From: Minisyncoccia bacterium | GTDB taxonomy: Bacteria; Patescibacteriota; Minisyncoccia; Phycocordibacterales; UBA918 | Reading direction: 5' to 3' | DNA: 64,000 bases | Assembly: GCA_041742075.1 (NCBI GenBank) | Contig: JBGSJJ010000005.1 | Coordinates: 17,648 to 81,647, forward strand | Part shown: positions 39,452 to 60,044 of the stretch, one piece after another | Numbering within the stretch: the stretch's first letter is position 1 | Layout: each line of letters starts with the position of its first letter | Translations under genes and position numbers: made by a program | Notes under the pieces: generated by a model | The model's database searches: none | Told to the model about the DNA's origin: nothing | Seen by the model: the letters and a program-made list of their open reading frames with translations, nothing else

Positions 39452-40303
39452 ATGTTCTTATTTCGTGACCGGGTTCATTCTTTAAAATTGTGGCTTTTAC
39501 TGCTACTTACGACACTTTTTCTTTGGCCAGCGAATACCTCAGCTTCTACCGGTACACTCGCGGTGGAGCTACTCCCTCGGCCGGCGACTGGTGTCCCGGA
39601 ATACGTTAGTTTGACGCTGATGGCGACCGGTACCGTAGATATCTCTGGTTGGCGGATAGAAGATACTTTGGCCTCGCCTTCAGTGGTGTATACCTTTCCG
39701 ACGAGTACAATCCTGACTACCGGTACGCCACTTCGGGTTTGCCAGCTGGCTCTCGCAACCGTACCGACAGCTCCCTGCAACGCTCACTTTGGCGGTACGG
39801 CCAAGTGGAATAATGATGGCGATACGCTTCGTTTGTTTTCAAATACTAATGTCGAAGTACTTACGCTTCCATACGTTGGGGCAGTTATTGTGGGAGAACT
39901 GCTTGAAACTACCACCACAGTTACACTCGACCTAGTTGAAGAACCTCCACCTCCACCTCCACCTCCACCCCCGCCAGACCCAGAAGAAGAGGAAGAGGAA
40001 GATGAACCACCTCCTCCACCTCCGCCACCAGTTCCGGTTGACACACCAAAGTTTGTCACCTTCTGTAAGGCTATAAATAGCCACCTGGTGCCGTTTATAA
40101 AGATAAAACTACCGTACTCGGTAGTTATGAAAGGCAAGGTGATAAAGGATGCTGACATAGTACCCTCTGTTGGTACGAGTACCGGACAAAACCTTACCCA
40201 AAACTACCTGCTTCGCGGTGGGACGCTTACCGGCCAGCAAATTCTAGATAAAAAATGCCTCGTACTTCGCCCCAAGCCCCGCCATTTTTGGTGGTTTAGA
40301 TAA
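39452..40303 (+). CDS. Secreted lamin-tail-domain (LTD)-like protein with a poly-Pro/poly-Glu linker
   Basis: Signal peptide, then EYVSLTLMATGTVDISGWRIEDTLA...AKWNNDGDTLRLFS (LTD-like beta-sandwich). Then PPPPPPPPPPPDPEEEEEEDEPPPPPPPP. Confidence 0.45.
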   Translation: MFLFRDRVHSLKLWLLLLLTTLFLWPANTSASTGTLAVELLPRPATGVPEYVSLTLMATGTVDISGWRIEDTLASPSVVYTFPTSTILTTGTPLRVCQLALATVPTAPCNAHFGGTAKWNNDGDTLRLFSNTNVEVLTLPYVGAVIVGELLETTTTVTLDLVEEPPPPPPPPPPPDPEEEEEEDEPPPPPPPPVPVDTPKFVTFCKAINSHLVPFIKIKLPYSVVMKGKVIKDADIVPSVGTSTGQNLTQNYLLRGGTLTGQQILDKKCLVLRPKPRHFWWFR

Positions 40304-42213: not shown

Positions 42214-45200
42214 ATGAACATATTTACTTTTACCAACCTATTTACAGCGCGCTGCTTTGCCGTTGTAACATTATTAGCAGTAGTGATGAGTGCCTTTCCG
42301 GCGCCTTTTTTTGTGTCGGAAGCCGAGGCCTTCAACAACGCACCAAGACTTGAAAAAGTGAAGTTCTGTCACGCGACTCCAAATGGTGACAGTCCATTTC
42401 AACTACAAAAGAAGTATGCGTTTGAAATAGCGCTTGGGCACCATAATCATGGTGGTGATATTTTCCCTACCTACGATGGTCCAGTGATAAATAATTACGG
42501 TGGCCAGAACCTAGATACTGAATATCCAGAGTATGGAGGTATGACTGGGGCAGACATCCTTAAGGCTGACTGTGAAGTACCAGAAACAGCCAAGCTTACC
42601 CTCGTAAAGAACGTTGTTGGTGGAGAAGCTGAAGCTAAAGACTGGAATTTGTCGGCAACCGCTCTCGGAGAAAACGATAACTTTGACTTTGAAGTTGAAG
42701 GAGACGAAGAAGGGGCTGAATACCTCATAGAGGCTGGTGTAGCATATGAAATTTCTGAAGAAGGTTCTGAAGAAAACTATACGCTTACGTCACTCACTTG
42801 TGACAAAGAAGGTGCTCTTTCAAACATTTACGAAGTTACCCTTGAAGAAGGAGACGATGTAACTTGTACCTTCACGAACACGTATGTACCTCCACACGTA
42901 CCAAAGGTGACGATTGAAGCGACAAAGATCATCTGTGAAGACGAAGCACTGCTTCCAAATGATGGGTACACAAACATTGACGCCAATACTGCAACTAACT
43001 TTTTGGCTGAAAACCCATCATGTTACCTCGCGCAAGATTGGGATTTCCAATATGCGGTTGGTGGCCTCAGTAACGGTAACTCACCAGATAATGATGGTGT
43101 ACTTGATGAGAATGGTTGGGACGAAGAAAATACTGTGTCTACAGTCGGAGGAGTAGCGACAATGGTTATCGAAATGAGTGAACTTGGTCAAAACCGAACT
43201 GTTTCAGTTCGAGAAGTGATGCAAGAAGGCTACATTCCATTTACTGGTCAACAAGGGGGTCCAGTTTCAGCAGAACTCTACTGCGCAAACGATGCGGCTA
43301 ACTTTGACAACCTTGAATGGGTACCAGTTTCAGCTGACAACACCTACCACTGTGTAGCTTGGAACGTGCCTGAACTCGAAACAGTAGAAGCGTGTAAGCT
43401 CGACGAAGCAGGCAACAAGCTTGCTGGTTGGGAAATGACCATCTCAAATGGTGATGATGAAGACGATGTAACGAAGGTAACTGGAGAAAACGGCTGTACG
43501 ACCTTTGAAGTAAATCCAAATAATGGTCCTTGGACAGTCTCAGAAACAGTCAAGACTGGCTGGGATCAAGTAGAAGTAGATGCTAATTGGGGCTATATAG
43601 TAGGAGAGGAGGGATCACAGTCATGTGAATTCTTTGGAAAACGTGCAGAAGCACGTACTAATATAGTTGTTGTAGATACTGAAGAGGGCTACAACTGTAC
43701 CTTCACCAACGAAGCAGCACCAATCTGTGTAGATAAGCCAAATGGTGACTTCGCCAATGATTACCAAGACGTAGACCAGAAAAAGCGAAAGGATGGCTCA
43801 GCTATTACTAATCCTGATCGAATTGACCCAAGCAAGGTGCTTGGCGCTAATGACTGGGTAGCGAACGGCAGTACTGGTTTCTTTGCACTTGGCTTTGGTG
43901 GTTCAATCGTGGTTGAGTTTGACTCATACGTACCAAACGTAGCAGGCAACGACATCACTGTCTTTGAAGCAACTAATGGCACCTACCCAGCTGAAACAGC
44001 CTTGGTAGAAGTAAGTCAAGACGGAAGTGACTGGGAAACAGTTGGTACTGCCAACAACACAAACGCTGGCAAAATTACAAACTTTGACTTCGATTCAACT
44101 GGCCTCGCATGGATTAAGTTTGTCCGAGTTACCGATACTAGTAATTCAGCGCTTCACACGAGCGATGCAGATGGCTTTGACTTAGACGCAGTGAAGGCGA
44201 CCCAAACAGTGTGTGTTCCTCCTGAGGAAGCACCAGTTTGTTCAGTAACGATTGTGAGTGATGAAACAAACATCGTTGGCGCTATGTTCGCGAAACTTGT
44301 TACCTTTATTCACAATGACTGGGATGCGATTGTCGCAGCACCAAGTGCGTGGATTTGGGGAGATGACCCGGTAGCTGACCCAGTAAACGAGACTATCCAG
44401 ACCTTTGAAAAGACCTTTGGTTGGAATGGTCCAGTTACTTCAGCTGTCCTCACGATTGCCGCTGATAACAGCTACGCTGTAGCGGTTAACGGTGACGCAG
44501 CGGGAAGTGACGCAACTGAAAAGAACTTTATTGTGGCTGACGTGCACGACCTGTCTGGCTTTATTGACCAAGGCAACAACACGCTCGCAGTTACCGTAAA
44601 GAACTGGGCACAAGCAAATGGAACTACTAAGAGTAATCCAGCTGGTCTTAAGTACGAACTCGTTATCACTGGTTCAGATGAGAACTGTGATGTACCGTAC
44701 GAAGAAGAAGTAGAGCCAGTAGACGTTACTATCTGTAAATACGACGCTAAGGAAAACGAACTAGCTGGATGGACACTCTCACTCCTTGGCAACAAGGTAG
44801 AAGATGTGGTTGTTCCAGCTACGAATGGTACTGGTGTAGACACGACAGCTGTCTTAAGTGGCGGTAAGTCATACGTAGCCAAGGCTATGGGTACTTGGGA
44901 CAATAACCGAGGCCCGCTCAACATTGTTGACGCTGAGTACTCAACTGAAGATACTTGGGCAACTTACATGAACGGCTTTGATGGCTACGGAGAAGATATT
45001 CTCGAGCTATCAGTAAACGGTCTTCTCGGAGACTGGGGAGCATACAACAGTGCTCATACTTACCTGCAAGCGTTTACGCAAGCAACTGGTACTGCAAACG
45101 TAGCGGTACAAGATACGTTCTATGGTGATAATACCGGTTCACTCAATGTCAGTATCTTTGAAGGATACGCTGGTATTACTGACAAAAACGGTTGCGTTAC

Positions 45201-46761
45201 CTTCAGTGACGTGACTCCAGGTTCATACACTATCGGTGAAGTGATGCAAGACGGTTGGACTAATCAGTCAGGTCTTGGTGAAGTAACTGTCAGTGAAGAA
45301 AACAACGAGTTTACCGTGGTAAACAAGGAAATTGATGAGGTAGCAACAGTTATCGCACACAAAATCGTGTGTACAGACGAAACTGACCTACCAAACTGGG
45401 CGGAACTAGAAAACACAGTTGGCGCAACCACAGCACTTGACTGGGTAAATGACCCAGAGAACCCAAGTTGTGAGCTTGTACCAGACTGGAAATTCCAGTG
45501 GACACTGCCACAAGGCGATCAGTCTAACCCAGACAATGACATTTCTGATGGAAATGAACTCTATGGTGAAGCAGAAGGTTGGACAACTTTTGGACCAACC
45601 GATGCAAATGGTATGACTACACTTACCCTCACTGAAGAAGACTTAGGTGATGCTGGGTATATCTGGATTCGTGAAGTGCTTCAAGACGGACACCTACCAT
45701 TTACCTATGGTCCAGACCAGCAAAACAACAATGACGACGTGAGTGCTGAAATCTATTGTCATAAAGACGTAAAGAACTATGACAACTATGACCGAGTAGA
45801 CGGTATTGAAGTTGGTGAGACATATAACTGTGTAGCTTGGAATCATATCGAGCCATCAGAACCAGTTTGTCTCGAACCAGAGACAAACCTCATTGCAAAC
45901 GGTGGTTTTGAAGCCAACGATGTAACTGATGGCGCTGGCTGGCAAATATTTGCTTCAGGCACGCCACTTCTAGAGTGGTTGGTAAGTTGGATTAATCCAA
46001 CTGGTGCTCCAGAAGTAGCCTCACTTGAACTCCATGGTGGAGTAAATGGTTGGCTACCAGCTGAAGGTCTGCAGTACGCAGAGCTTGATTCAGATTGGCA
46101 AGGTCCAGGTGGAGGCAACGGTGAAGCGGCATCAGTTTCTATCTCACAGACTGTGCCAACACTCGCCGGTGTAGACTACAACCTCGCATGGGACTTCTCA
46201 CCACGACCTGACCAAAACGGTACTGAAAACGTACTTGAGGTATTGGTTAACAACGTACTAGTAGACACTAATACAGCAGCTGGTAACGGTACTCAGACTG
46301 TATGGACAGGGGATTCAGTTACTTTTGAAGGAACTGGTGCTCCAATGACCATTACCTTCCGTGATGCTGGTACAAATAACTCAGTCGGAACCTTTGTTGA
46401 CGATATCTCAGTAAACTGCGTTCGCGGTGAAGGAGATGGCGACGGGGAAGGTGACGGAGATGGCGATAATGACGATACACCAACTATCCCTCCAACTATA
46501 CCAACTCCAGATGATGGTGATAACACCTCAACTCGACTAGAAGGACGTAACTCAGGTGGTTCGTCTGACTCATCAGATACTGAAACTGGCCTTGGTGGTA
46601 ATCCAGAAGGAGAAGTACTTGGTGACCAAGTGTCTGTTGTGCCATTTGGTGCAGCGAACGCTGGTTTCGGAGGAACAGCATCAGACGCCAAAGCAATGGC
46701 ACTGGTGCTTGCCCTTATCCTCGTACTCGCTCTCTTCTCAGTTCGACAGAAGGTTGCGTAA
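42214..46761 (+). CDS. Giant (1515 aa) multidomain cell-surface protein/adhesin with a C-terminal tripartite sorting signal
   Basis: Signal peptide. Repeated beta-sandwich modules ending in TCTFTN / YxCVAWN motifs. A jelly-roll region. A DUF642-like domain (LIANGGFE...AELDSD...ISQTVPTLAGVDYNLAWDFSPRPD). A GDGDGEGDGDGD spacer. Then EVLGDQVSVVPFGAANAGFGGT, a hydrophobic helix and the basic tail SVRQKVA. Confidence 0.7.
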   Translation: MNIFTFTNLFTARCFAVVTLLAVVMSAFPAPFFVSEAEAFNNAPRLEKVKFCHATPNGDSPFQLQKKYAFEIALGHHNHGGDIFPTYDGPVINNYGGQNLDTEYPEYGGMTGADILKADCEVPETAKLTLVKNVVGGEAEAKDWNLSATALGENDNFDFEVEGDEEGAEYLIEAGVAYEISEEGSEENYTLTSLTCDKEGALSNIYEVTLEEGDDVTCTFTNTYVPPHVPKVTIEATKIICEDEALLPNDGYTNIDANTATNFLAENPSCYLAQDWDFQYAVGGLSNGNSPDNDGVLDENGWDEENTVSTVGGVATMVIEMSELGQNRTVSVREVMQEGYIPFTGQQGGPVSAELYCANDAANFDNLEWVPVSADNTYHCVAWNVPELETVEACKLDEAGNKLAGWEMTISNGDDEDDVTKVTGENGCTTFEVNPNNGPWTVSETVKTGWDQVEVDANWGYIVGEEGSQSCEFFGKRAEARTNIVVVDTEEGYNCTFTNEAAPICVDKPNGDFANDYQDVDQKKRKDGSAITNPDRIDPSKVLGANDWVANGSTGFFALGFGGSIVVEFDSYVPNVAGNDITVFEATNGTYPAETALVEVSQDGSDWETVGTANNTNAGKITNFDFDSTGLAWIKFVRVTDTSNSALHTSDADGFDLDAVKATQTVCVPPEEAPVCSVTIVSDETNIVGAMFAKLVTFIHNDWDAIVAAPSAWIWGDDPVADPVNETIQTFEKTFGWNGPVTSAVLTIAADNSYAVAVNGDAAGSDATEKNFIVADVHDLSGFIDQGNNTLAVTVKNWAQANGTTKSNPAGLKYELVITGSDENCDVPYEEEVEPVDVTICKYDAKENELAGWTLSLLGNKVEDVVVPATNGTGVDTTAVLSGGKSYVAKAMGTWDNNRGPLNIVDAEYSTEDTWATYMNGFDGYGEDILELSVNGLLGDWGAYNSAHTYLQAFTQATGTANVAVQDTFYGDNTGSLNVSIFEGYAGITDKNGCVTFSDVTPGSYTIGEVMQDGWTNQSGLGEVTVSEENNEFTVVNKEIDEVATVIAHKIVCTDETDLPNWAELENTVGATTALDWVNDPENPSCELVPDWKFQWTLPQGDQSNPDNDISDGNELYGEAEGWTTFGPTDANGMTTLTLTEEDLGDAGYIWIREVLQDGHLPFTYGPDQQNNNDDVSAEIYCHKDVKNYDNYDRVDGIEVGETYNCVAWNHIEPSEPVCLEPETNLIANGGFEANDVTDGAGWQIFASGTPLLEWLVSWINPTGAPEVASLELHGGVNGWLPAEGLQYAELDSDWQGPGGGNGEAASVSISQTVPTLAGVDYNLAWDFSPRPDQNGTENVLEVLVNNVLVDTNTAAGNGTQTVWTGDSVTFEGTGAPMTITFRDAGTNNSVGTFVDDISVNCVRGEGDGDGEGDGDGDNDDTPTIPPTIPTPDDGDNTSTRLEGRNSGGSSDSSDTETGLGGNPEGEVLGDQVSVVPFGAANAGFGGTASDAKAMALVLALILVLALFSVRQKVA

Positions 46762-46784
46762 GTAGAATGACGCTTTAAACAAAA

Positions 46785-46816
46785 GGCCCGCCAGCTCTAT
46801 GCTGGCGGGCCTTTTG
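46785..46816 (+). terminator. Intrinsic terminator after the giant surface-protein gene
   Basis: AAGGCCCGCCAGCtctatGCTGGCGGGCCTTTT. Confidence 0.65.
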
Positions 46817-47054
46817 CCTTGAAAGTGGCCTAATCAATCACTATGTATTATATACGAGGACAGAAGACGGTTCTGTCAACCTTGTGCAACTGTGTGAGCA
46901 ACGTATGATTGTACTATTCCATGATGACTACTTGCGGCCACTATTGCTAGGGGACAAAAATGCGCACATTTTATGTGCGCTTTTTTGTACCCTCGCGAAG
47001 AGTTTTGGGTAGTCATTTGGGCATTATTAATTACTACTAAGTAAATACATTACT

Positions 47055-48458
47055 ATGAATACAAAACGATTAATCATGAGCCTCGGTATGCTCGCCTTTG
47101 TAGGTGCCGTGGTGGTAGGAGGAACCGGCGCGTTCTTTAGTGACCAAGAAGCGTCTGTCGGCAACGTGTTTGCCGCCGGTGACGTGGATGTTGAGATTCT
47201 AAACATTACTCATTCACCAGCTGAGCCAAACCTAGTTGGTTTTGAAGTATCTGAAGAAAGCTTCACGTTTTCTTTTGCTGACCTTAAGCCACTTGATACT
47301 GGAACTGTTACCTATACAATCCAAAATGATTCAAACCCAGCTTATGTCTGTGCCATGGTGGAAGAGACTGGAAACAATGACAACGCGACTAATGACCCGG
47401 AAGAAGACGCTGGTGATGACTCACCCGGAGTTGGTGAGGGTGAACTGGGACAATTTCTTAGTTTCAAGTTTGGTGATGAAACAGGCACCCTTGAAGCTAT
47501 CAGTGGTCTCTGGCAGACTGTTGGTGAGGTTGTTAACAATAACTCTATTCCTGCAGAAATTGACTACTGTTTCGGAGAATTTGACGGGCTAAACTGTGTG
47601 CTTGACGAAGATGCTGTGTATAACATGGCTCAGACAGATCAGCTTACAGCTGACGTGAAGTTCTACGCTGTGCAGACCCGAAACAATGAAGATTTCGACT
47701 GTTCTAGCTTGAATGAAGAGGTTGAACCAGATGTTTTAGCTAGTTATGCGACAGGTTTTGAACCAAATACATTCGCAGTTGGAAACATTAACACACAAGA
47801 TAATTGGGAAAAAACAGGTCCATTCGATGCTGCGGTTGTAAACAATCCTGCGATTGAAGGGTTGCAGTCACTTCGTATTTCAAATGCAGTTACGAGTGGC
47901 AGTTTTGGAGATCAGACCTTCTCACCTGAGCTTGCTATAGGAGCTGGGGAGACAGGAGTAGCTCCGGCAAAACGATTTGAGGCGGAATTCGAAATTTCTT
48001 CAATGCAAGTTGCTGAACAACCAGGCTTAGCGGTAACAGTTTCGCCAGACGATGGTAGTGGGTCACGAATGAGTTTCCTTCGTTTTTCAGATACACCAGC
48101 GGGAATTGATGTAACATTCTTCGATGCTACAAACCCTGGACCACTACCAACTGCGACAGCATTTAACCCGACTGTGATAGCGTCACTTGATCGAAGTATC
48201 TCTCACACTGTAAAGATGACTCTAGATTTTGTAGATGGACCTGGAAACGATATTGTTAAGGTCTACATTGATGGTGTACTTGAGCACACAGGAACTACTT
48301 GGGAAGACTATTATCGATTTGATTCAGAGCAATCAGGAAATGGAAATACTCTGTTTGCTGTTGATTCACTTCTATTCCGAACTTCAGGTACAGCAGCTCC
48401 AGCCACCTCTGGTGCAGGTTACTTGTTTGACACTTTAGTACTTACAACTAGTAACTAA
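47055..48458 (+). CDS. TasA/CalY/camelysin-family (peptidase M73-like) secreted protein with a SipW-cognate signal peptide and a C-terminal jelly-roll extension
   Basis: N-terminus ..VVVGGTGAFFSDQEASVGNVFAAGDVDVEI (SipW-cognate class). F.FADLKPLDTG..IQN and FYAVQTRNNEDF match camelysin core motifs. About 250 aa of extra C-terminal domain. Confidence 0.65.
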   Translation: MNTKRLIMSLGMLAFVGAVVVGGTGAFFSDQEASVGNVFAAGDVDVEILNITHSPAEPNLVGFEVSEESFTFSFADLKPLDTGTVTYTIQNDSNPAYVCAMVEETGNNDNATNDPEEDAGDDSPGVGEGELGQFLSFKFGDETGTLEAISGLWQTVGEVVNNNSIPAEIDYCFGEFDGLNCVLDEDAVYNMAQTDQLTADVKFYAVQTRNNEDFDCSSLNEEVEPDVLASYATGFEPNTFAVGNINTQDNWEKTGPFDAAVVNNPAIEGLQSLRISNAVTSGSFGDQTFSPELAIGAGETGVAPAKRFEAEFEISSMQVAEQPGLAVTVSPDDGSGSRMSFLRFSDTPAGIDVTFFDATNPGPLPTATAFNPTVIASLDRSISHTVKMTLDFVDGPGNDIVKVYIDGVLEHTGTTWEDYYRFDSEQSGNGNTLFAVDSLLFRTSGTAAPATSGAGYLFDTLVLTTSN

Positions 48459-48578
48459 CGAAATGTAGGGGTTGCATAATTTAGTCTTGACGAAAGTTAC
48501 TTCACACTTGAGAGGAGTAACTGGGTCAAGGCTTAAGTAATGCCTGATGAAAATTAGTTACTAATTATAACGAACGAT

Positions 48579-49883
48579 ATGAAACGAATTATTGGAAGTA
48601 GTGTGATGCTCTTGGCTGTTTTGGCCATTATAGTGGGTGGTACTGGTGCGTTTTTCAGTGATGAAGAGGTTTCAACTGGAAACGTGTTTACCGCTGGTGC
48701 TATCGACCTCACGGTAGACCAAGCGGAAGCCAGCTATAACGGCGAAAGTTGTGTAAACAACTGTGTCGCGAGTGGAAATGAACTCATTATTAATGGTGGT
48801 TTTGAAGACCCTGTGTTGAATAATCCAAACTACCAGATGTTTCCAACCGGTATCCTTGGTTGGAGTGTTGAGTCTGGGGCTGGTATTGAAGTTCAGCGAA
48901 ACGCAGCTGGTGCACCACATAGTGGAGCACAGCATGTTGAACTCGATAGTGATAACTCAACCACGATGTTCCAGACTCTTACCACAGTGGCCGGACAAAA
49001 GTACCGACTGTCATTTTGGCACTCACCACGACCGAATCGTCCCAACAACGACAACGTGATTGGTTATGAGGTGCAGGTGGTAAGTGGTGCAACCACTATT
49101 ATTGATGGTGTTGTTGGTGTTAATAACGCCGGTGGCAATACTACGGGCAATACTGTGTGGACACAGTACACGTACGACTTTATTGCAACTGATACTTCTA
49201 CCAAAATCATCTTTAGTGACCAAGGGACTGTTTTGAGTAACACGTACGGCGGATACCTCGACGATGTATCAGTTAAAACAATTACCTGTTCAGTTAGCAC
49301 CTACGCTGATACTCAGGGTGGATTCTGTGAACTTTGGGAGGCGACTGACCTCACGACCCAGAAGTTCTTTAATTTCTCTGATGTGAAGCCACAAGACTCT
49401 GGAACCAACCTTATTTCTCTCCACGTTGAAAACAACGAAGCCTACATGTGTCTCACTGTGGCTAACCAGGAAGATAATGAAAACCTAACTAATGATCCTG
49501 AACTTGAAGCAGGTGATGTACTCCCAGCTGGCGAGCTGTCTGAACACCTGATGGTAGCTGGTTGGTATAGTGACGAAAATGGTGCCAATCTCTCACCAAT
49601 GTTTGGTCCAACGTACATGAATGACCTTGAAGACATTACGTTTGCTGACAGTGACTCGACCGAAGACCCGATTGAGCCCGGCGCGACAAAGTATGTAAAC
49701 CTGGCGTGGTGTCTTGGTACGCTTACGGTTACCGGTAACACCTTTACCTGTGACGGTGATGTACCAAACATCAATCGAACTCAGACCGACTCTCTTTTAG
49801 CTGACCTTCAGTTCTACGCGGTCCAAACCCGAAACAACGAGGAATTCTCTTGCGAAGCGGTTGAAGAAACCCCAGATCTCTAA
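48579..49883 (+). CDS. TasA/camelysin-family protein with a SipW-cognate signal peptide and an inserted DUF642-like domain
   Basis: N-terminus ..IIVGGTGAFFSDEEVSTGNVFTAGAIDLTVD. Inserted LIINGGFEDP...VELDSD...FQTLTTVAGQKYRLSFWHSPRPN. Then F.FSDVKPQDSG and FYAVQTRNNEEF. Confidence 0.65.
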   Translation: MKRIIGSSVMLLAVLAIIVGGTGAFFSDEEVSTGNVFTAGAIDLTVDQAEASYNGESCVNNCVASGNELIINGGFEDPVLNNPNYQMFPTGILGWSVESGAGIEVQRNAAGAPHSGAQHVELDSDNSTTMFQTLTTVAGQKYRLSFWHSPRPNRPNNDNVIGYEVQVVSGATTIIDGVVGVNNAGGNTTGNTVWTQYTYDFIATDTSTKIIFSDQGTVLSNTYGGYLDDVSVKTITCSVSTYADTQGGFCELWEATDLTTQKFFNFSDVKPQDSGTNLISLHVENNEAYMCLTVANQEDNENLTNDPELEAGDVLPAGELSEHLMVAGWYSDENGANLSPMFGPTYMNDLEDITFADSDSTEDPIEPGATKYVNLAWCLGTLTVTGNTFTCDGDVPNINRTQTDSLLADLQFYAVQTRNNEEFSCEAVEETPDL

Positions 49884-49961
49884 GGAACTGGTAGTCTAAC
49901 TCTGTGCGGGCAAACACCATTTGCTCGCACTCCTTAGGCTAGCAGGGTCTATTCGTACATT

Positions 49962-50486
49962 ATGCAAACACTTTTAAAACTCGGCTACTATCTACTGGCA
50001 CTGTCTGTGCTGGTCTTCGGTATGCTTTTAGTTTTGATTCAGACACAGGTTCTGTCGGGATATGAAGTGCGGATTGTGCAGTCAGGCTCAATGGAGCCGG
50101 CGCTTACTACTGGGAGTGTGGTACTGATACGGGAGCAAGCGAGCTATCTTGTGGGCGATATCATCACCTACGGTGATGAGCGTTCTGGCAGTCTACCAAC
50201 CACGCACCGTATCGTGGCTGACCAACTACAGGAAGGAAAGATTGCCTTTACTACCAAAGGTGATGCAAACGATAGTGAAGACCAGTCAGTTACGAGCCTT
50301 GAGTCTGTGCGCGGTAAAGTGATTTTAGACATACCATATCTCGGATATTTGCTCGATTTTGCCAGACAACCACTCGGGTTTGCGCTCCTTATCGGTGTGC
50401 CAGCCGGGCTGATTGTGTTTGAAGAAGTTGGGTCAATTTGGTCAGCGGTACGAAATCGTAAAGAAGACGAAATAGAAAAAGTATGA
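49962..50486 (+). CDS. sipW: Signal peptidase I, SipW type (S26B, eukaryotic/archaeal-like)
   Basis: TM helix, then VQSGSMEPAL (catalytic Ser) and GDIITY..., the length and motif order of SipW. ATGA overlap with the next gene. Confidence 0.8.
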   Translation: MQTLLKLGYYLLALSVLVFGMLLVLIQTQVLSGYEVRIVQSGSMEPALTTGSVVLIREQASYLVGDIITYGDERSGSLPTTHRIVADQLQEGKIAFTTKGDANDSEDQSVTSLESVRGKVILDIPYLGYLLDFARQPLGFALLIGVPAGLIVFEEVGSIWSAVRNRKEDEIEKV

Positions 50487-51328
50487 GGTATCAACCACTA
50501 CAACAAGTATGGCAAAAATCCATCACACTGATGGCGATTCTGGCTGTACTTGGTGTACCAGTGACGACGGAGAGCTTTTTCACGAACCTTGAGACGTCAA
50601 CTGCTCAGGGTTTTGTCGCGACTGAACTGATTCTTGAAACACCTGCACCTATCGCTCCAGTCACCGTTGGTCCGGGGGTGTCGCTTAGTGAAGTAAGGAT
50701 AGTTCCAATTCTCACCACTGAAGCCAGTACTGAGTCATTTTTTGAACTGACTAGTCAAGCAGTCAGTAGTGACGGTCTCTTTTGTGATGCGCTTAAGCTC
50801 AGCGCTTCATGGGAAGCTTTTTCAGTCAGTAGCCACCCAGACACTCTTGATTCGGCCAGTTTGACTGACTATGGTGACTGGCAACTGACGCTAGACTACG
50901 ACGTAACCCAACATGACTTCGAAACGGGGGCTACCTGCACTATTACGCTTTCGGTTGAAGCCTGGCAAGCCAGTATGTCGCAAGAAACCGCTGGGTATCG
51001 CGACACGACCGAGGTAGAACTTGTCGTGACCGCTGACATGTCGCTCGTGGATTCTTTGCATACTCTCGGTGCTCGCGCTTCGGTCGCTGGACTTCCACTG
51101 ACTCAGCTGAGTATCTTGCTTGATGAACCAGAAATAGTTGAAGTTGAGCCAGTTGAGGCGGGTATTCTAGAGCCAACAGTAGTTGAATCGCCAATTGTGG
51201 AGGAACCAGTCGAGCCTGCTCATGAAGACCTGCCGGAAGTAGAGGAAGTTGATGCACAGCCTGAGGAAGAAGTACCAGAAGCTGAAGCACCACCTGAACC
51301 AGAGCCTACACCTGAAGAAACATCATGA
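50483..51328 (+). CDS. TapA-like secreted acidic protein with a SipW-cognate-like N-terminus
   Basis: TM segment, then TTESFFTNLETSTAQGFVATELIL (FF[ST][DN].E.S...F.A..L.L pattern). C-terminal E/P-rich acidic tail. Translationally coupled to sipW and to the next gene. Confidence 0.4.
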   Translation: MRYQPLQQVWQKSITLMAILAVLGVPVTTESFFTNLETSTAQGFVATELILETPAPIAPVTVGPGVSLSEVRIVPILTTEASTESFFELTSQAVSSDGLFCDALKLSASWEAFSVSSHPDTLDSASLTDYGDWQLTLDYDVTQHDFETGATCTITLSVEAWQASMSQETAGYRDTTEVELVVTADMSLVDSLHTLGARASVAGLPLTQLSILLDEPEIVEVEPVEAGILEPTVVESPIVEEPVEPAHEDLPEVEEVDAQPEEEVPEAEAPPEPEPTPEETS

Positions 51329-52380
51329 TAACTACTCTTAAAACAACCTGGGGAGGACTTTTCTGTGGGTTATTGCTATGGCTTATGCTTCCTGTAAGTG
51401 CGCTCGCGGCCGACTTGGCAGTCGTGTTTGAAGCGACGCCACTTTTTTCGAGCGCCAACATTGTACCCGGTGATAGTGTGAGTCGGACTATCGAAGTAAG
51501 TAATACCGGTACCGAAACGGAAGCTCTACTTCTGTCAGTGGCAAACACTTTCAGTAGTGGGTTGAGTGAGGTGATGTTACTTACGGTAACAAGTGGAAGT
51601 GATAGCTTTTTTGAGGGTACCTTTGTGGAGTTTTTTACCGCTACCCCGGTACCCCTGGGCGATATAGCTGATAGTTCTAGTCGTACCTACACCCTCACGG
51701 CTTCATTGCCAAGTGGGATAGGTAACGAATACCAGCTCGAAACGCTCGGCTTTGACCTCGTGATTGGTTTTGAAGGAGGTGAAACGGTGACGGATGGAGA
51801 GCCAGAAAGAAGTAGTGGTGGAGGCGGCGGAGGTGGTAGTTTTGACCTGTTTAATGAACGAGTAGTGGCGGTAGAACCAAGTACAGGAAGCGCGACAGTG
51901 ACGTGGAATACGAATCGGAACAGTTCCTCATATCTGATTTGTGGCAACCTTGAGGACGGACCGTTTTCCCTTAGTACCAACCCTCCGCTTTTTGGATACG
52001 TGTTTAGTGTGCCAGAAGAAGATACCGATACCGTCTCACACAGTATGACGCTGACTGATTTGGCGCTTGGTAGCTATGAGTGTCGGCCGGCTAGTCGAGA
52101 GGAATCAATTGATGATTTTACCGTAGGGCGAGTCGTAGAGTTTGACTTCACAAGCAATTTTGTCCCGGTTGGTTCAGTCTTAGGGGTCGGAACGACCTCG
52201 GGTGTGGATGTAGTACCTATGCCTGACGTTAAGGGAGCACAAGTATCCCTCTTACCTGATGGTGGACTTAACCTTGGTTTTGGCTACGTACCATATCGCA
52301 CACTGGTTCCGGTCGGTGTGGGCCTACTCTTAGTAGTGATTCTTTTAGTCTACTTACGTCGTTTCGTCAGAAGGAGCTAG
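51325..52380 (+). CDS. Membrane-anchored camelysin/TasA-like plus FN3-like protein with a C-terminal hydrophobic/basic anchor
   Basis: Sec signal (SALAADL). LFSSANIVPGDSVSRTIEVSNTG (camelysin NxKPGD-like). Gly-rich linker. FN3-like EPSTGSATVTWNTN. C-terminus ..LVPVGVGLLLVVILLVYLRRFVRRS. Confidence 0.4.
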   Translation: MITTLKTTWGGLFCGLLLWLMLPVSALAADLAVVFEATPLFSSANIVPGDSVSRTIEVSNTGTETEALLLSVANTFSSGLSEVMLLTVTSGSDSFFEGTFVEFFTATPVPLGDIADSSSRTYTLTASLPSGIGNEYQLETLGFDLVIGFEGGETVTDGEPERSSGGGGGGGSFDLFNERVVAVEPSTGSATVTWNTNRNSSSYLICGNLEDGPFSLSTNPPLFGYVFSVPEEDTDTVSHSMTLTDLALGSYECRPASREESIDDFTVGRVVEFDFTSNFVPVGSVLGVGTTSGVDVVPMPDVKGAQVSLLPDGGLNLGFGYVPYRTLVPVGVGLLLVVILLVYLRRFVRRS

Positions 52381-52533
52381 TAAGCAATTTGACAAGATTG
52401 TAAATATACGGTTATTCACAACTGTGGATAATTATTGACAAGACAATAAAACTCCATTGCGGTATATACTTACCGTATGTGAGACTTTTATAAGTCACAT
52501 TTTATATAAATAGTAGATAAATGAATTAGAGTT

Positions 52534-54108
52534 ATGAATTATAAAATAGTAGAACAAACTGCCAAGAACACCCTCGTGATTTTGGCAACCCTCGCACTCC
52601 TTACTAGTGCGTTCCCGGCGTCTTTAGCGTCAGCTCAAGTTGTTTTAGACGAACCAGAGTGTTTAATTGAAACACCAAACTTGATTGATAATGGTGGTTT
52701 TGAAGACCCTAATGTCACTGATGCAGCAGGTTGGGACATTTTTGACGAATCAGAAACAAACTGGAATGTAGAATGGATAAATGGTGGTGAAAGTGCTCCA
52801 GATCCAGAACTTGAAATCCATAAGGGCTCTGTATTTGGTTGGGGAGTAGAAGAAGGTGAGCAGTATGCTGAACTTGATAGTGACTTTGACGGTCCAGCTG
52901 GTTCAATCCAAGATGAACCAGCTTCACTTGAAATCTCTCAGAAAGTAGCAGTTGAAGAAGGAGCAACGTATAAGTTGTCATGGCTTTTCTCAGCTCGGCC
53001 AGATACTGGAGAAAGTGATAATGAACTAAATGTAGAAGTTGCACTTGGCGATGGAAATGTAAATACAACCAATAGTGCAAATGGAGGTTCTGATACAGAT
53101 TGGACGGCTGATTATCTTGTTTTTGAAGCAGATACAGAGAACATCGTCGTTTCATTCACTGATGAAGGAACACCAAACTCTCGCGGAACATTCCTCGATG
53201 GTGTGTCGCTTTGTAAGGTAGCAGAACCAGAAACTTCAACTGTAGACTTAACTGTCTGTAAGCTTGATACGCAAGAAGCAGGAGTAGAAGGTTGGGAATT
53301 TGAAGTTACCAACGATTCTGACTCAGAAGGTGGTTCATTTATTGTGACGACTGGTGAAGACGGGTGTGTTACGACACAAGTAGATCCAGAATTTGGTCCA
53401 TGGTATGTGTATGAAGTTGAACAGGAAGGATGGGTGTATGTAAATCATAGTGCTGATTTTGGTGAGGCGATTGATGTGCAGGGGAACAATGCCTGTCGAT
53501 TCTTCAATCGAGAAATAATCGATGAACAACTAACTACTAGATTAGTTAAGGTACTAGATACTGCTCCAGAGCTAAACTGCACGTTTGTAAATGAGCGCGA
53601 GCCAGAAGAAGGGAATGATGACCTTACCTGTTCACTTACAACAAGCGAAGACTCAGTCAGTAGTGGCGAAGAATTTACCCTTACTTGGGAGACTACAAAT
53701 GCTTCAAACGTATCAATCACTAACTTAGGCGATGTAGCGGTAGATGGTTCAGCTGAAACTACAATCGATACTGACACAACCTTTACACTTATCGCTAGCC
53801 GTTTTGTTGGAGAAGAAGAGACTGAAGAAACTGTACAATGTAGTGTAGAAGTCGACCGTCAATCAGGCGGCGGAGGTGGGGGAACACGAGTTAATCGTGA
53901 CGAACCAGAAGAAGATGAGGAGCCAGAGCCTGAAGTCTTGGGTGACAGTACTTCAATTCCACAAGGCGTAGTACTCGGTGACCAAATTTCAGCCGTACCA
54001 CTTGGTGCAGCTTCAACGGGAGCTGGTGGAACTTCACCAGTAGCACCAGTACAGCCGTATCTCGCTGCTTTGGCTATCAATGCAGTTCGAGTTGGAAAAG
54101 TGAAATAA
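52534..54108 (+). CDS. Secreted DUF642-like-domain surface protein with the same C-terminal sorting signal as the giant adhesin
   Basis: Signal peptide. LIDNGGFEDP...AELDSD...ISQKVAVEEGATYKLSWLFSARPD. Beta-sandwich repeats. Then VVLGDQISAVPLGAASTGAGGT, a hydrophobic stretch and RVGKVK. Confidence 0.6.
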   Translation: MNYKIVEQTAKNTLVILATLALLTSAFPASLASAQVVLDEPECLIETPNLIDNGGFEDPNVTDAAGWDIFDESETNWNVEWINGGESAPDPELEIHKGSVFGWGVEEGEQYAELDSDFDGPAGSIQDEPASLEISQKVAVEEGATYKLSWLFSARPDTGESDNELNVEVALGDGNVNTTNSANGGSDTDWTADYLVFEADTENIVVSFTDEGTPNSRGTFLDGVSLCKVAEPETSTVDLTVCKLDTQEAGVEGWEFEVTNDSDSEGGSFIVTTGEDGCVTTQVDPEFGPWYVYEVEQEGWVYVNHSADFGEAIDVQGNNACRFFNREIIDEQLTTRLVKVLDTAPELNCTFVNEREPEEGNDDLTCSLTTSEDSVSSGEEFTLTWETTNASNVSITNLGDVAVDGSAETTIDTDTTFTLIASRFVGEEETEETVQCSVEVDRQSGGGGGGTRVNRDEPEEDEEPEPEVLGDSTSIPQGVVLGDQISAVPLGAASTGAGGTSPVAPVQPYLAALAINAVRVGKVK

Positions 54109-54126
54109 TTACTTAGTTCAGGAAAC

Positions 54127-54158
54127 AAAACCGCGCGACTTTTAGTCGCGCGGTTTTC
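54127..54158 (+). terminator. Intrinsic terminator
   Basis: AAAACCGCGCGACttttaGTCGCGCGGTTTT. Confidence 0.65.
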
Positions 54159-54214
54159 GTCTATGCTCACCCCTTAGTACACTCCGAACTAAAAGAATGA
54201 TAATCTAAAGCGTA

Positions 54215-55213
54215 ATGAATACAGTTGCTACAAGTATTACTCCTGTTTTTTCTCACGAAACAGCCGGCAAGATTATGGCTACTCAGGTGCCGGTATTTTT
54301 AGTTTCGGAATCGCTCTCACACGTAGAAGAAGTTTTACGTAAGGATGCGCTTACGTTCAAAACAATCAACTATATTTACTTTGTTGATGAGGCCAGAAAG
54401 CTGGTTGGCGTGCTCTCAATTAAAGAGTTGCTATGCTGTAGTGACACGTATACGGTAGAGCAAATAACTACTAAAAAAATTTTTAGTGTTACCGCTGATA
54501 CCGACCAAGAACATATTGCGTTTCTCGCCCTGAAGCATAGTATCAAGGCGGTGCCTGTAGTTGATGATTCTGGTGTGTTTCTTGGAGTAGTGTCTTCAGA
54601 TACCATTCTTTCCATTCTTCATAGTGAGTCAATTGAAGACGCCCTGCATCATACGGGAACAGTGATTTTTGAAGACCCACTCGCGAGTCTCCGAACTGGT
54701 TCGGCTTGGCTTCACTTTAAGAAGCGAATCCCGTGGCTCATTATGGGCTTGGGTGGAGGAATTGGAGCCGCACTCGTCATTGAGGCCTTTGAGTCAACCC
54801 TAGAACAATTACTTATTTTGGCTACGTTTATTCCGCTTGTTGTCTATATGGCTGATGCGGTTGGCTCTCAGTCACAGACCATTTTTATTCGTTCACTCGC
54901 TCTCCCCGACACGCTGAGTATACGAGGCTATATCTTCCGAGAGCTAAAAGTAACTGCCATGATTGCCCTGTCACTCAGCGCTATTATGTTTATCGTGCTA
55001 TCGCTTTGGTTTGCATCATTTTTGGTAGGGACTATTGTCGCACTGACTATTTTATGTGGCGTGAGTGTGTCTGTGCTGATTGCGATGACCTTGCCGTATA
55101 CGTTTAAAAAGTTTAACTTTGACCCAGCACTTGCCAGTGGTCCTTTTGCAACGGTACTGTGTGACACTTCAAGCCTCCTCATCTATTTTTGTATTGCTAG
55201 TCTGATCTTATAG
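54215..55213 (+). CDS. MgtE-like divalent cation transporter, short form lacking the N-domain (CBS pair plus TM domain)
   Basis: CBS-pair region, then the MgtE TM signature FIPLVVYMADAVGSQSQTIFIRSL and 5 TM helices. Paralog of the gene at 233-1495. Confidence 0.75.
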   Translation: MNTVATSITPVFSHETAGKIMATQVPVFLVSESLSHVEEVLRKDALTFKTINYIYFVDEARKLVGVLSIKELLCCSDTYTVEQITTKKIFSVTADTDQEHIAFLALKHSIKAVPVVDDSGVFLGVVSSDTILSILHSESIEDALHHTGTVIFEDPLASLRTGSAWLHFKKRIPWLIMGLGGGIGAALVIEAFESTLEQLLILATFIPLVVYMADAVGSQSQTIFIRSLALPDTLSIRGYIFRELKVTAMIALSLSAIMFIVLSLWFASFLVGTIVALTILCGVSVSVLIAMTLPYTFKKFNFDPALASGPFATVLCDTSSLLIYFCIASLIL

Positions 55214-55267: not shown

Positions 55268-55945
55268 ATGAAGAAAGCGGGTATACAGACCGAAGGGAAC
55301 CAGAGTACACGATGGCTGTTTGCTAAACTAGCAGTATTTTTGGTAGTTTTTCTCGCGCTAATGCTTTTTTTGAAAGTCTCTTCAACTGAGGCACCGGCAC
55401 CAGATACCATAGAAGAGTCGGTTACCGCAAGTACAACAATTCAAGGTACGATTCTTTCAGAATCGAGTCCTAACCGACTCCGTATTCCGAAGGTTAATAT
55501 TGATACTACTTTTGAAAAAGCACTCGGACTCAATGAAGACAAAACGGTTGAAGTACCCGTTGGGTATGAGCAGGTTGGGTGGTACAAGTTTGGGCCGACG
55601 CCAGGGGAGCTTGGGCCGGCAGTGATTCTTGGTCATGTTGATTCAGTTGATGGTCCGGCGGTTTTTTGGTCACTGGGGCAACTGACTGCTGGCGACGAGA
55701 TTTTTATTGACCGTGAGGACGGTAGTACAGCTCGTTTTGTGGTGACTGAACTTAAAAAAGTATCGCAAAATGATTTCCCGAGTCAAGTAGTGTATGGCGA
55801 CATTGATCACGCTGGACTCAGACTCATTACGTGTAGTGGAACGTTTAATCGGGGTGCCCAGCGCTATAGCCATAACCTAATTGTGTTTGCCAAGCTCGCT
55901 GAGGAACCAACCGGCGAAGAAGAAACCGAAGCAGAAACTCTCTAG
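55268..55945 (+). CDS. Sortase (class E/F-like transpeptidase)
   Basis: N-terminal TM anchor. VILGHVDS (catalytic His), LRLITCSG (TLxTC Cys), downstream Arg in TFNRG. 225 aa. Confidence 0.8.
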   Translation: MKKAGIQTEGNQSTRWLFAKLAVFLVVFLALMLFLKVSSTEAPAPDTIEESVTASTTIQGTILSESSPNRLRIPKVNIDTTFEKALGLNEDKTVEVPVGYEQVGWYKFGPTPGELGPAVILGHVDSVDGPAVFWSLGQLTAGDEIFIDREDGSTARFVVTELKKVSQNDFPSQVVYGDIDHAGLRLITCSGTFNRGAQRYSHNLIVFAKLAEEPTGEEETEAETL

Positions 55946-57464: not shown

Positions 57465-57923
57465 TTGCTAATGAAACAAACCCAGTCAGACTTAAAAGTG
57501 GTGGAGGTTCACCAGGCAGACGTTTCGACGACTGAACGGCAAAGAGTTGCGCTATTTTCGTCGCGTCCGCAAGCTGGCTTTCCATCACCGGGGGATGATC
57601 AAGTGGAGCGTGTGCTTGATATCAATGACTTAGTGGTAAAACACCCCGCCAGCACGTTCTTTGTCCGGGTGTCGGGTGATTCTATGGAGGGAGCAGGTAT
57701 ATTTCATAACGACGTACTGGTGGTTGATCGTGCTATAGAGCACAGTGATGGAAAAATAGTGGTGGCAGCCGTGAATGGAGAGCTGGTGGTCAAACGGCTT
57801 TCGAGCCAGCGTGGTATTCTGATGCTTCTGTCTGAAAACCCTTCATATGCTCCGATTAAGGTAAGTGAAGAAGAGGAATGTTTTGTGTGGGGTGTAGTAG
57901 TTGGGAGTGTCCGACAGTTTTAG
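57465..57923 (+). CDS. umuD: UmuD-like S24 LexA-family autopeptidase (translesion synthesis accessory subunit)
   Basis: GFPSPGDD..., the catalytic Ser region VSGDSMEGAGI, and Lys in GELVVKRL. 152 aa with no N-terminal HTH, so UmuD rather than LexA. Confidence 0.75.
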   Translation: MLMKQTQSDLKVVEVHQADVSTTERQRVALFSSRPQAGFPSPGDDQVERVLDINDLVVKHPASTFFVRVSGDSMEGAGIFHNDVLVVDRAIEHSDGKIVVAAVNGELVVKRLSSQRGILMLLSENPSYAPIKVSEEEECFVWGVVVGSVRQF

Positions 57924-59468: not shown

Positions 59469-60017
59469 GAGTCGTTTCAGTCCGACTAGTGTGTTTGTGT
59501 CCATGTCCCACTCAATGTCGCTCGTTTCATGCACCTCCTTTAGAGAAATTACTCCAGCACTTGCTTCCAAATGATACATGAGGAGTATTTTGGTAAAACT
59601 TAGATATACAGCAGTGTCTACAACTAAGCGTAGCTTTCTCACAGGGTATCTACCGAGCGCAGTTAAAAATATGTACTTCCATATTTCGTCTCGATACGTA
59701 CCACTAAACACATACATGAGCATAGCAAGTGGTACCAGTGGTGCCGGTACTGAACATCTGAAACTCAGGCTTGGTTCGAGCATCTTTGGGGTTTTTTTGA
59801 CGTTGTACCAACGACCACCCTCTATGAGAGTCAGAAAAAGGTTCTCTCTGCTATATAAATCTTCAAGTTCTAGTAACTTTATTGGGTTAAGCAATTTGGT
59901 TTTGAAAACGCTATCATCAAACCCAGCTTTCGTGACAAGTTCTTGGAACGTCGGAGGATTGCTTTCAAACATCACAGGGCTCCCTTTGGTACTGTTTTCA
60001 CAGCTAGTAAACTTCAT
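59454..60017 (-). CDS. Hypothetical protein (unknown family) divergent from the Y-family polymerase gene
   Basis: 187-aa ORF with no recognised motifs. Overlaps the alternative extended start of the polymerase ORF. Confidence 0.35.
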   Translation of the reverse strand: MKFTSCENSTKGSPVMFESNPPTFQELVTKAGFDDSVFKTKLLNPIKLLELEDLYSRENLFLTLIEGGRWYNVKKTPKMLEPSLSFRCSVPAPLVPLAMLMYVFSGTYRDEIWKYIFLTALGRYPVRKLRLVVDTAVYLSFTKILLMYHLEASAGVISLKEVHETSDIEWDMDTNTLVGLKRLEAVP

Positions 60018-60044
60018 GTCATACTACTTGTCAATGCAACCTGT

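Follow-up and report, generated by a model that had tools for sequence, protein, structure and literature searches.

The question raised by the stretch of DNA examined in this study (64,000 nucleotides of contig JBGSJJ010000005.1 from a Minisyncoccia bacterium, hereafter the window) is what its longest open reading frame (ORF) encodes, how the product would be held at the cell surface and what it might bind. The ORF at 42214-46761 on the forward strand begins with ATG and is a real gene of 1515 residues. A first-pass annotation made from the sequence alone had already called it the largest gene in the window, and the strings quoted there (VTCTFTN, NTYHCVAWN, ETYNCVAWN, GFFALGFGGSIVVEFDS, AWIKFVRVTD, LTIAADNSYAVAVNG and GDGDGEGDGDGDND) were all found in its product. 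The gene probably encodes a Sec-exported, wall-attached modular lectin adhesin, belonging to a bacterium of the Patescibacteria (Candidate Phyla Radiation, CPR) that resembles Kaiserbacteria; we give this reading moderate confidence.

In the mechanism proposed, the signal peptide would direct Sec export of a protein built on a rigid stalk of five CnaB/prealbumin-type domains (two SpaA-like domains, two copies of a repeat termed module A, and one domain hosting a nested lectin), each of which would be locked by a Lys-Asn isopeptide bond, with a conserved Glu as catalyst, and by one or two disulfides. The stalk would carry four lectin-type jelly-roll modules (F5/8C/CBM32-like, CBM67-like, LecA-like and DUF642), each closed by a Cys pair, of which the CBM67-like and LecA-like modules keep residues aligned with the Ca2+/sugar-site residues of characterised relatives. 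An 85-residue Cys/His domain would lie at the distal N-terminal tip, while at the other end an acidic linker would lead to a tail that is cleaved by a class F sortase encoded 8.5 kb downstream and attached covalently to peptidoglycan. Such a protein may bind rhamnose- or galactose-type glycans, on a host envelope or a polysaccharide substrate, in a multivalent and Ca2+-dependent manner.

Domain layout and the CnaB-type stalk

The mature adhesin is about 158 kDa and strongly acidic (isoelectric point about 4.05). Its features, with residue numbers referring to the full-length protein, are as follows.

42214..46761, + strand: adhesin gene, 1515 residues, mature protein about 158 kDa
42214..42327, + strand: putative Sec-type signal peptide, residues 1-38, likely cleaved between AEA and F; read by eye from the sequence
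42328..42582, + strand: N-terminal 85-residue Cys/His domain, residues 39-123 (alignment A3, 14 sequences)
42583..42897, + strand: CnaB/prealbumin-type domain 1, residues 124-228, ending in VTCTFTN (Pfam SpaA_2 and SpaA_4; conservation over 43 copies)
42898..43377, + strand: module A copy 1, residues 229-388, ending in YHCVAWN; predicted CnaB-type fold with insertions
43378..43722, + strand: CnaB/prealbumin-type domain 2, residues 389-503, ending in YNCTFTN (Pfam SpaA)
43723..44217, + strand: probable F5/8 type C (discoidin, CBM32-like) module, residues 504-668 (sub-threshold Pfam and weak PDB matches)
44218..44709, + strand: CBM67-like lectin module, residues 669-832 (profile A4 against the PDB)
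44710..45333, + strand: CnaB-type domain 3 with nested lectin, residues 833-1040, candidate triad K842/E1009/N1037
44806..45168, + strand: LecA/PA-IL-like lectin, approximately residues 865-985, inserted in CnaB domain 3
45334..45858, + strand: module A copy 2, residues 1041-1215, ending in YNCVAWN, with K1050, N1210 and four Cys
45859..46425, + strand: DUF642 / choice-of-anchor C module, residues 1216-1404 (NCBIfam TIGR04362)
46426..46623, + strand: acidic low-complexity linker, residues 1405-1470, containing GEGDGDGEGDGDGDNDD
46624..46758, + strand: C-terminal sorting-type signal, residues 1471-1515 (EVLGDQVSVVPFGAANAGFGG, hydrophobic AMALVLALILVLALFSV, RQKVA)

The first-pass annotation had proposed disulfide- or isopeptide-stabilised repeats of prealbumin-like type, and this proposal was supported by SpaA-type Pfam matches above cut-off, by CnaB-type structure models and by invariant Lys, Glu and Asn residues. 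The domain annotation that it had called for, made with Pfam and NCBIfam, returned structured domains: SpaA_2 scored 36.1 bits (cut-off 25), SpaA_4 29.2 bits (cut-off 27.3) and SpaA 32.1 bits (cut-off 23.1), at residues 124-224 and 390-446. Below threshold, Pfam also matched an F5/8 type C domain at residues 581-643, a GH2 sugar-binding domain at 725-802 and CarboxypepD_reg at 976-1018, and no catalytic domain was detected in the adhesin by either scan. The structure models suggested in the same annotation delimit the repeats as CnaB-type domains, with predicted local distance difference test (pLDDT) scores of 91.5 for module A and 94.7 for residues 833-1040. Its list of modules was incomplete: it lacked the Cys/His domain at the N-terminus, the DUF642 module and the LecA-like lectin that sits inside a CnaB domain.

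Candidate isopeptide triads can be placed in the three stalk domains other than module A. CnaB domain 1 has K132/E182/N222 together with the Cys pair C196/C218, as judged by conservation over 43 copies, and domain 2 has K395/E444/N499 and four Cys. For domain 3, the Lys is conserved in all 20 sequences that cover it, the Glu (E177 in alignment numbering) in 23 of 23 and the Asn (N205) in 22 of 22. The model of residues 833-1040 is that of a CnaB domain carrying an insertion of about 120 residues, and the profile of the same segment independently matches BcpA (E = 2.3e-7).

Module A is a unit of 160 residues whose two copies (229-388 and 1041-1215) are 38% identical (BLASTP E = 1e-27, well outside what chance would give) and are true paralogous repeats; they were found by direct pairwise comparison, whereas BLAST of the full-length sequence against itself under default filtering listed no internal repeats. 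Its model matches CnaB domains of Gram-positive pilins. The best structural matches obtained were the pilus shaft proteins RrgB, SpaA, SpaD and BcpA. When 55 copies were aligned, K10, C13, P20, C42, F50, R105, E106, C129, D137, C152 and N156 were invariant; in copy 1 of the adhesin these include K238, E334 and N384, and C241, C270, C357 and C380. The three putative triad residues (K10, E106 and N156, each in 55 of 55 sequences) fall within predicted strands 3-12, 101-108 and 149-156, with the Lys in the first predicted strand, the Glu in a 'VREV' strand and the Asn as the last residue of the final strand (CVAWN). A Lys in the first strand, a Glu, and an Asn in the last strand make up the arrangement of the CnaB isopeptide triad. 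In profile-profile comparison (hhalign), the module A Glu was placed, weakly (E = 0.0095), on the 'Y.i.E' Glu of a conventional CnaB domain. Checked member by member, module A gave no credible Pfam match, and its alignment profile found no sequence relative in the PDB. It is an unclassified, well-delimited domain family with a clean Lys/Glu/Asn signature, and possibly a new self-ligating domain.

Because the triad of module A is placed as in CnaB domains, the Cys-containing end motifs can be read, on the strength of these models, as the last beta-strand of CnaB-type domains, which would contribute the Asn of the isopeptide bond and a Cys of a disulfide. Four such motifs occur in the adhesin, namely VTCTFTN (C218), YHCVAWN (C380), YNCTFTN (C495) and YNCVAWN (C1206); the first-pass annotation had named three of them correctly but had overlooked YNCTFTN. 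The mature protein holds 24 Cys in all, and each domain contains either two or four, which argues for intradomain disulfides. Conserved Cys also stand near both ends of each of the four lectin-type modules (C505/C667, C676/C825 and C1219/C1402). Both the Lys-Asn bonds and the disulfides of the stalk are predictions from modelled folds and conserved residues.

The N-terminal domain (residues 39-123) matched neither Pfam nor NCBIfam, and its profile found no sequence relative in the PDB. It is present in 13 of the 63 homologues described below, and a 14-sequence alignment gives C52, H53, G75, H76, D82, I83, P85 and C120 as invariant, a C-H...G-H...D-I-x-P...C pattern suggestive of metal binding together with a disulfide. 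As the adhesin would be anchored C-terminally, this domain would be at its distal tip. At the opposite end, the acidic linker (1405-1470) matched none of the homologues. The poly-(GD/GE) spacer that had been proposed to precede the sorting signal is present within this linker, although it is only about 17 residues long, and Tandem Repeats Finder reported no DNA tandem repeat beneath it, which makes length variation driven by slippage unlikely.

Lectin-type modules and their spread among Patescibacteria

One of the four lectin-type modules lies at residues 669-832, where the first-pass annotation had suggested a carbohydrate-binding module of unspecified type; the suggestion is strongly upheld and can now be narrowed to CBM67-like. 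A profile of 27 sequences (A4) matched residues 135-231 of the Streptomyces avermitilis rhamnosidase SaRha78A (PDB 3w5m) with E = 1.9e-17 (best stretch 1.4e-11) and the Pleurotus ostreatus lectin with E = 6e-15, and Bac_rhamnosid_N was matched by 6 of the 27 members. In contrast to the CBM67 of SaRha78A, the module occurs without a GH78 enzyme, and a conserved Cys pair (C676 and C825) encloses it. D751 and N752, part of an 'AADN' motif, are invariant in 27 of 27 sequences, and the 'ADN' of this motif aligns with D179 and N180 of SaRha78A, which Fujimoto et al. 2013 reportedly identified as ligands of Ca2+ and rhamnose. The CBM67 of SaRha78A is a Ca2+-dependent, non-catalytic rhamnose-binding module (PMC4690510), and a review (PMC11186620) treats the Pleurotus lectin as CBM67-like and gives Gal, GalNAc, GlcNAc and L-Rha as its ligands.

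The lectin nested in CnaB domain 3 was undetected by Pfam and has a predicted PA-IL jelly-roll fold with conserved Ca2+ ligands. The profile of residues 833-1040 matches EclA-N (E = 0.0027), and in the HMMER alignment the near-invariant D135, D140 and N141 (D967, D972 and N973 of the adhesin) align with the Ca2+ ligands of EclA-N, in which the side chains of the residues corresponding to D114, D121 and N122 coordinate the canonical Ca2+ (PMC11875179). Compared to the LecA (PA-IL)/PllA/EclA-N family of galactophilic lectins, the domain identified here, at 18-19% identity, is nested in a CnaB domain of a predicted wall protein of 1515 residues rather than being a free, oligomeric lectin of 121 residues.

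The remaining two modules are assigned with less certainty. For residues 504-668, bracketed by C505 and C667, the discoidin/jelly-roll resemblance noted in the first-pass annotation was consistent but stayed below threshold: the isolated domain scored 25.8 bits against a Pfam gathering score of 27.8 and 24.0 against 28.2, F5_F8_type_C_2 was matched by 9 of the 12 family members of the module, and the PDB returned weak CBM32 and neuropilin matches (E = 0.04-0.6). The module is likely to resemble F5/8 type C (discoidin)/CBM32 domains, a resemblance that falls short of proof of membership. The fourth module, bracketed by C1219 and C1402, matched NCBIfam TIGR04362 at residues 1225-1400 along the full profile (1-157 of 157; E = 2.4e-12), with 47.4 bits against a cut-off of 120; PF04862 was not listed by the Pfam scan of the adhesin, though it is recorded for many homologues.

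A database search with the adhesin returned 63 homologues, the best of which aligns with 80% of the query at 59% identity; the few that carry names belong to Campbellbacteria, Komeilibacteria and Spechtbacterales, with one protein from Woesearchaeota. When segments of the query were used as probes, all of the homologues were found to reuse the same set of modules in varying order and number. Module A is the most widespread segment, with 57 of the 63 homologues together containing 84 copies. When 1.84 billion representative proteins were searched exhaustively with HMMER, 1,082 clusters (at 50% identity) with module A were recovered, 929 of them with E < 1e-30. The family is sharply bounded. As to the repeat-number variation that the first-pass annotation had proposed to compare, module A occurs in one to four copies per protein across these clusters.

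In data comprising one genome per species, 227 stretches encode module A. The best 80 of these 227 are nearly all from Patescibacteria (Kaiser-, Moran-, Nomura-, Giovannoni-, Uhr-, Shapiro-, Komeili- and Campbellbacteria, Paceibacterota, and metagenome-assembled genomes (MAGs) labelled Saccharibacteria), and homologues and loci alike come overwhelmingly from this group. A few DPANN-type archaeal MAGs are also among the 80. In these, namely L040 and L046 (Micrarchaeota MAG) and L050 (uncultured archaeon LFW-281_7), the domain was either passed between two lineages of episymbionts or assigned to archaea through mis-binned contigs.

The lectin modules leave two kinds of target to be weighed. It is possible, though rather unlikely in our estimation, that the target is biofilm matrix or a polysaccharide of the environment and not a host cell, the modules serving as a tether to plant, algal or microbial exopolysaccharide or as a device for capturing glycans for nearby hydrolases. 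Modules of the CBM67, CBM32-like and DUF642 kinds are commonly attached to glycoside hydrolases, and a GH18-like gene is part of the conserved block downstream. However, no catalytic domain accompanies the modules in the adhesin itself, and the modules are shuffled among Patescibacteria and a few DPANN archaea, lineages whose members in culture are found attached to other cells (PMC11623550).

C-terminal tail and the class F sortase

The tail of the adhesin comprises VLGDQVSVVPFGAANAGFGG (within EVLGDQVSVVPFGAANAGFGG), the hydrophobic stretch AMALVLALILVLALFSV and the basic end RQKVA. Candidate target peptides of the class F sortase are VVPFGAANAGFGG, VSVVPFGAANAGFGGTAS and ISAVPLGAASTGAGGTSP. 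A motif search of the whole adhesin for LPxT[GAS], LPxTG, LAxTG and NPxTG was negative, the motif of the tail being VPFGAANAG. Many homologues share the pattern VLGEQVSxVPxGA[PA]x[TA]GxGG, after which come a hydrophobic stretch and a basic C-terminus, and other members of the family end in a PG_binding_1 domain, an alternative device for attachment to the wall.

Two further genes of the window bear on how this tail might be used.

55268..55945, + strand: class F sortase gene, 225 residues (NCBIfam NF033748, 175.6 bits against a cut-off of 166)
52534..54108, + strand: second protein with the same tail, 524 residues, consisting of a DUF642 domain, a SpaA-like domain and VVLGDQISAVPLGAASTGAGG

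The sortase has His123, Cys189 and Arg199, and matches the sortase gene of locus L001 by tblastn. Sortase association was counted over 80 genome loci encoding module A (the best 80 of the 227 stretches): in all five loci with a tail-bearing protein a sortase gene lies directly downstream, compared to a sortase within 8 kb in 3 of the other 75 (Fisher exact p = 2.3e-6). In the closest homologue, P0001, the sortase gene also follows at once. The second tail-bearing protein, found by BLAST and motif search, is secreted; its DUF642 domain is 45% identical to that of the adhesin, its SpaA-like domain ends in LNCTFVN, and its tail runs VVLGDQISAVPLGAASTGAGG...VRVGKVK, with a weak hydrophobic segment. 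Within the 64 kb, this type of tail is confined to the adhesin and ORF 52534-54108, and the latter lies two genes upstream of the sortase, of which it is likely to be a second substrate.

From the pairing of tail and sortase in relatives, the class F sortase of the window and the second tail we infer sortase-mediated anchoring to the wall through a non-canonical motif, the genomic context being the decisive evidence. The first-pass annotation had placed a sorting signal after the acidic spacer, and this context supports it, with the qualification that the motif is non-canonical rather than LPXTG and is paired with a class F sortase. The physiological roles and substrates of class F sortases are poorly known (PMC13251363).

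As a separate observation, ORF 51325-52380 (forward strand, 351 residues) encodes a secreted protein with a weak DUF11 match, a C-terminal hydrophobic anchor and a basic tail (..LLPDGGLNLGFG..LLLVVILLVYLRRFVRRS), which resembles the tail of the adhesin only loosely.

Several observations weigh against a wall-attached, host-binding lectin adhesin. With regard to anchoring, TIGR01167 (the LPXTG model) has no match in the adhesin; the equivalent of the sorting pentapeptide is AANAG here and APxTG or AADAG in relatives, unlike LPXTG; and the sortase of this genome is not adjacent to the adhesin gene. The NF058571 GVDTG sorting domain, whose profile positions 1-33 of 44 align with the tail, scores 16.1 bits for the whole protein, 22.4 bits for the tail alone and 26.5 bits for the tail of the best homologue, all under the cut-off of 29, and the motif differs in being GAANAG or GAPxTG; a literature search for 'GVDTG' returned unrelated peptide strings only. 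With regard to binding, the F5/8C and DUF642 assignments lie under curated cut-offs, and EclA-N, the relative with the LecA fold, binds no identified ligand (PMC11875179), so that conserved Ca2+ ligands are no guarantee of sugar binding. The isopeptide bonds and disulfides of the stalk are argued from conserved residues, and the functions of the domains rest on sequence and models for every member of the family. A role in host attachment would follow solely by analogy with the episymbiotic lifestyle of cultivated Patescibacteria.

The points that concern anchoring, together with the limited knowledge of class F sortase substrates and the 8.5 kb that separate the sortase from the adhesin gene, would suit a surface protein held solely by its C-terminal transmembrane helix, in which the conserved VLGEQ..VPxGAxxxGxGG would be a structural or recognition element next to the membrane or a signal for a different sorting enzyme. 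We consider this unlikely, as the sortase gene lies directly downstream in all of the tail-bearing loci counted and in the closest homologue, all three parts of a sortase signal are in place in the tail (a motif, then a hydrophobic stretch, then a basic end), and a second protein with the same tail is encoded near the sortase of the window. Attachment to the wall by the class F sortase therefore remains the preferred reading of the tail.

Neighbouring genes, known relatives and significance

The first-pass annotation had placed the adhesin gene directly upstream of TasA-like fibre genes, and its position is as described: two genes downstream of the adhesin encode proteins with SipW-type (TasA/camelysin-like) signal peptides, followed by a SipW-like signal peptidase. 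However, the spacer of 294 bp between the adhesin gene and the first TasA-like gene contains two hairpins that resemble terminators.

46780..46816, + strand: hairpin 1, GC-rich, 19 nt after the stop codon and followed by TTTTG (-39.3 kcal/mol, z = -7.7)
46962..46980, either strand: hairpin 2, terminator-like and bidirectional, before the first TasA-like gene, with the pattern on both strands

Hairpin 1 has a perfect stem of 16 bp and is likely the terminator of the adhesin gene. An Rfam scan of the window returned one tRNA and nothing else. In Parcubacteria and Kaiserbacteria MAGs the conserved gene order is BipA, RluB-like, adhesin, sortase F, CAP-domain protein, UmuD-like and GH18, and the BipA of the window is 85-86% identical to that of the syntenic MAGs. 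In five loci (L001, L003, L004, L035 and L078) the sortase directly follows the adhesin with no TasA/SipW genes between them. As these relatives lack TasA/SipW genes there, the block of about 8.2 kb at 47055-55213 (two TasA-like proteins with SipW signals, the SipW-like peptidase, two secreted ORFs, the DUF642 protein and MgtE) is specific to this genome at this position, and is either an insertion here or a loss in the relatives.

It is very improbable that the adhesin is part of the downstream TasA-like fibre system, for example as a tip adhesin or anchor functionally tied to the genes that depend on SipW. Adhesin and TasA-like genes do lie side by side on one strand, and the second TasA-like protein and ORF 52534-54108 have DUF642 domains that are 32-45% identical to that of the adhesin, but the signal peptide of the adhesin is ordinary, with no match to TIGR04088 (the SipW-type model, which matches both downstream genes). 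An operon of the adhesin with the TasA/SipW genes was rejected on the grounds of the two hairpins and the missing TasA block in syntenic relatives, and the adjacency is probably incidental. Similarly improbable is a pilin that the sortase would link into a covalent pilus, a reading that would fit the best structural matches, which are pilus shaft proteins, but was rejected for want of a pilin motif (YPK(N)-type or [YFW]PK) and of a pilus-specific class C sortase, the one present being of class F, and because 1515 residues with four lectin modules resemble stand-alone wall-anchored adhesins.

Other features of the neighbourhood were recorded in passing. The C-terminal half of the first TasA-like protein (47055-48458, forward strand), which is not TasA-like, is 50% identical over 241 residues to positions 7281-7985 of L033, a segment within a module A adhesin ORF of a Kaiserbacteria MAG, and fibre proteins and adhesins appear to share modules. 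Upstream of the adhesin, ORF 39452-40303 (forward strand) encodes a secreted protein in which a lamin-tail domain, at 33.1 bits slightly under its cut-off of 34.3, precedes long runs of Pro and of Glu (PPPPPPPPPPPPDPEEEEEEDEPPPPPPPP). Downstream of the sortase, UmuD-like and UmuC-like genes of translesion polymerase V (57465-57923 and 59943-61286, forward strand) flank the GH18-like gene within the conserved block.

Compared to known systems, the preferred reading of a sortase-anchored lectin adhesin has its closest parallels in Gram-positive sortase-anchored adhesins and pilins (Cna, SdrD, RrgB, SpaA, BcpA and TIE), with which the protein shares a signal peptide, tandem CnaB domains, the Lys/Glu/Asn triad, ligand-binding modules, a three-part C-terminal signal and a sortase gene. 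Points of difference are its source, a Patescibacterium; a sorting motif of VPxGA[AP]x[TA]GxGG instead of LPXTG, with a class F sortase; its two four-Cys CnaB variants of 160 residues without a Pfam or PDB sequence match; the paired Cys of every domain; and the LecA-like lectin nested inside a stalk domain. In addition, its cargo is of lectin and carbohydrate-binding types, whereas staphylococcal adhesins bear Ig-like ligand-binding folds.

Large Cys-rich extracellular proteins and sortases have also been noted in CPR genomes, such as those of Peribacteria, and proposed for attachment (PMC4736985). The adhesin is like these proteins in being large, secreted, Cys-containing and encoded in a genome with a sortase, a likeness by description, these proteins having been reported without domain resolution. 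Attachment by large CPR surface proteins is thus an idea already known; what is new here is the resolution at the domain level and the pairing of tail and sortase.

We put forward tentatively, as a proposal that may well prove wrong, that module A is a new isopeptide-forming CnaB variant marking host-recognition adhesins across the Patescibacteria and occasionally DPANN archaea, that the shuffled lectin modules (CBM67-like, LecA-like, F5/8C-like and DUF642) set the host range, and that the tail [VLM]P-x-G-A-[AP]-x-[TA]-G-x-G-G is a lineage-specific signal for a dedicated class F sortase. If true, this would provide a defined set of substrates for the poorly understood class F sortases.

Rhamnose and galactose are common in bacterial cell-envelope polysaccharides, and the binding modules of the adhesin have characterised relatives with these sugars as known ligands. 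Little is known of the means by which ultrasmall episymbiotic bacteria recognise their hosts and keep hold of them, and work on host attachment has so far centred on type IV pili (PMC11623550). The locus described here offers a concrete, testable candidate, and supplies an unclassified domain family, a non-canonical sorting motif paired with a class F sortase and a lectin nested in a stalk domain. Verification of the sorting motif, of the new self-ligating domain or of glycan binding specific to a host would add to its significance.

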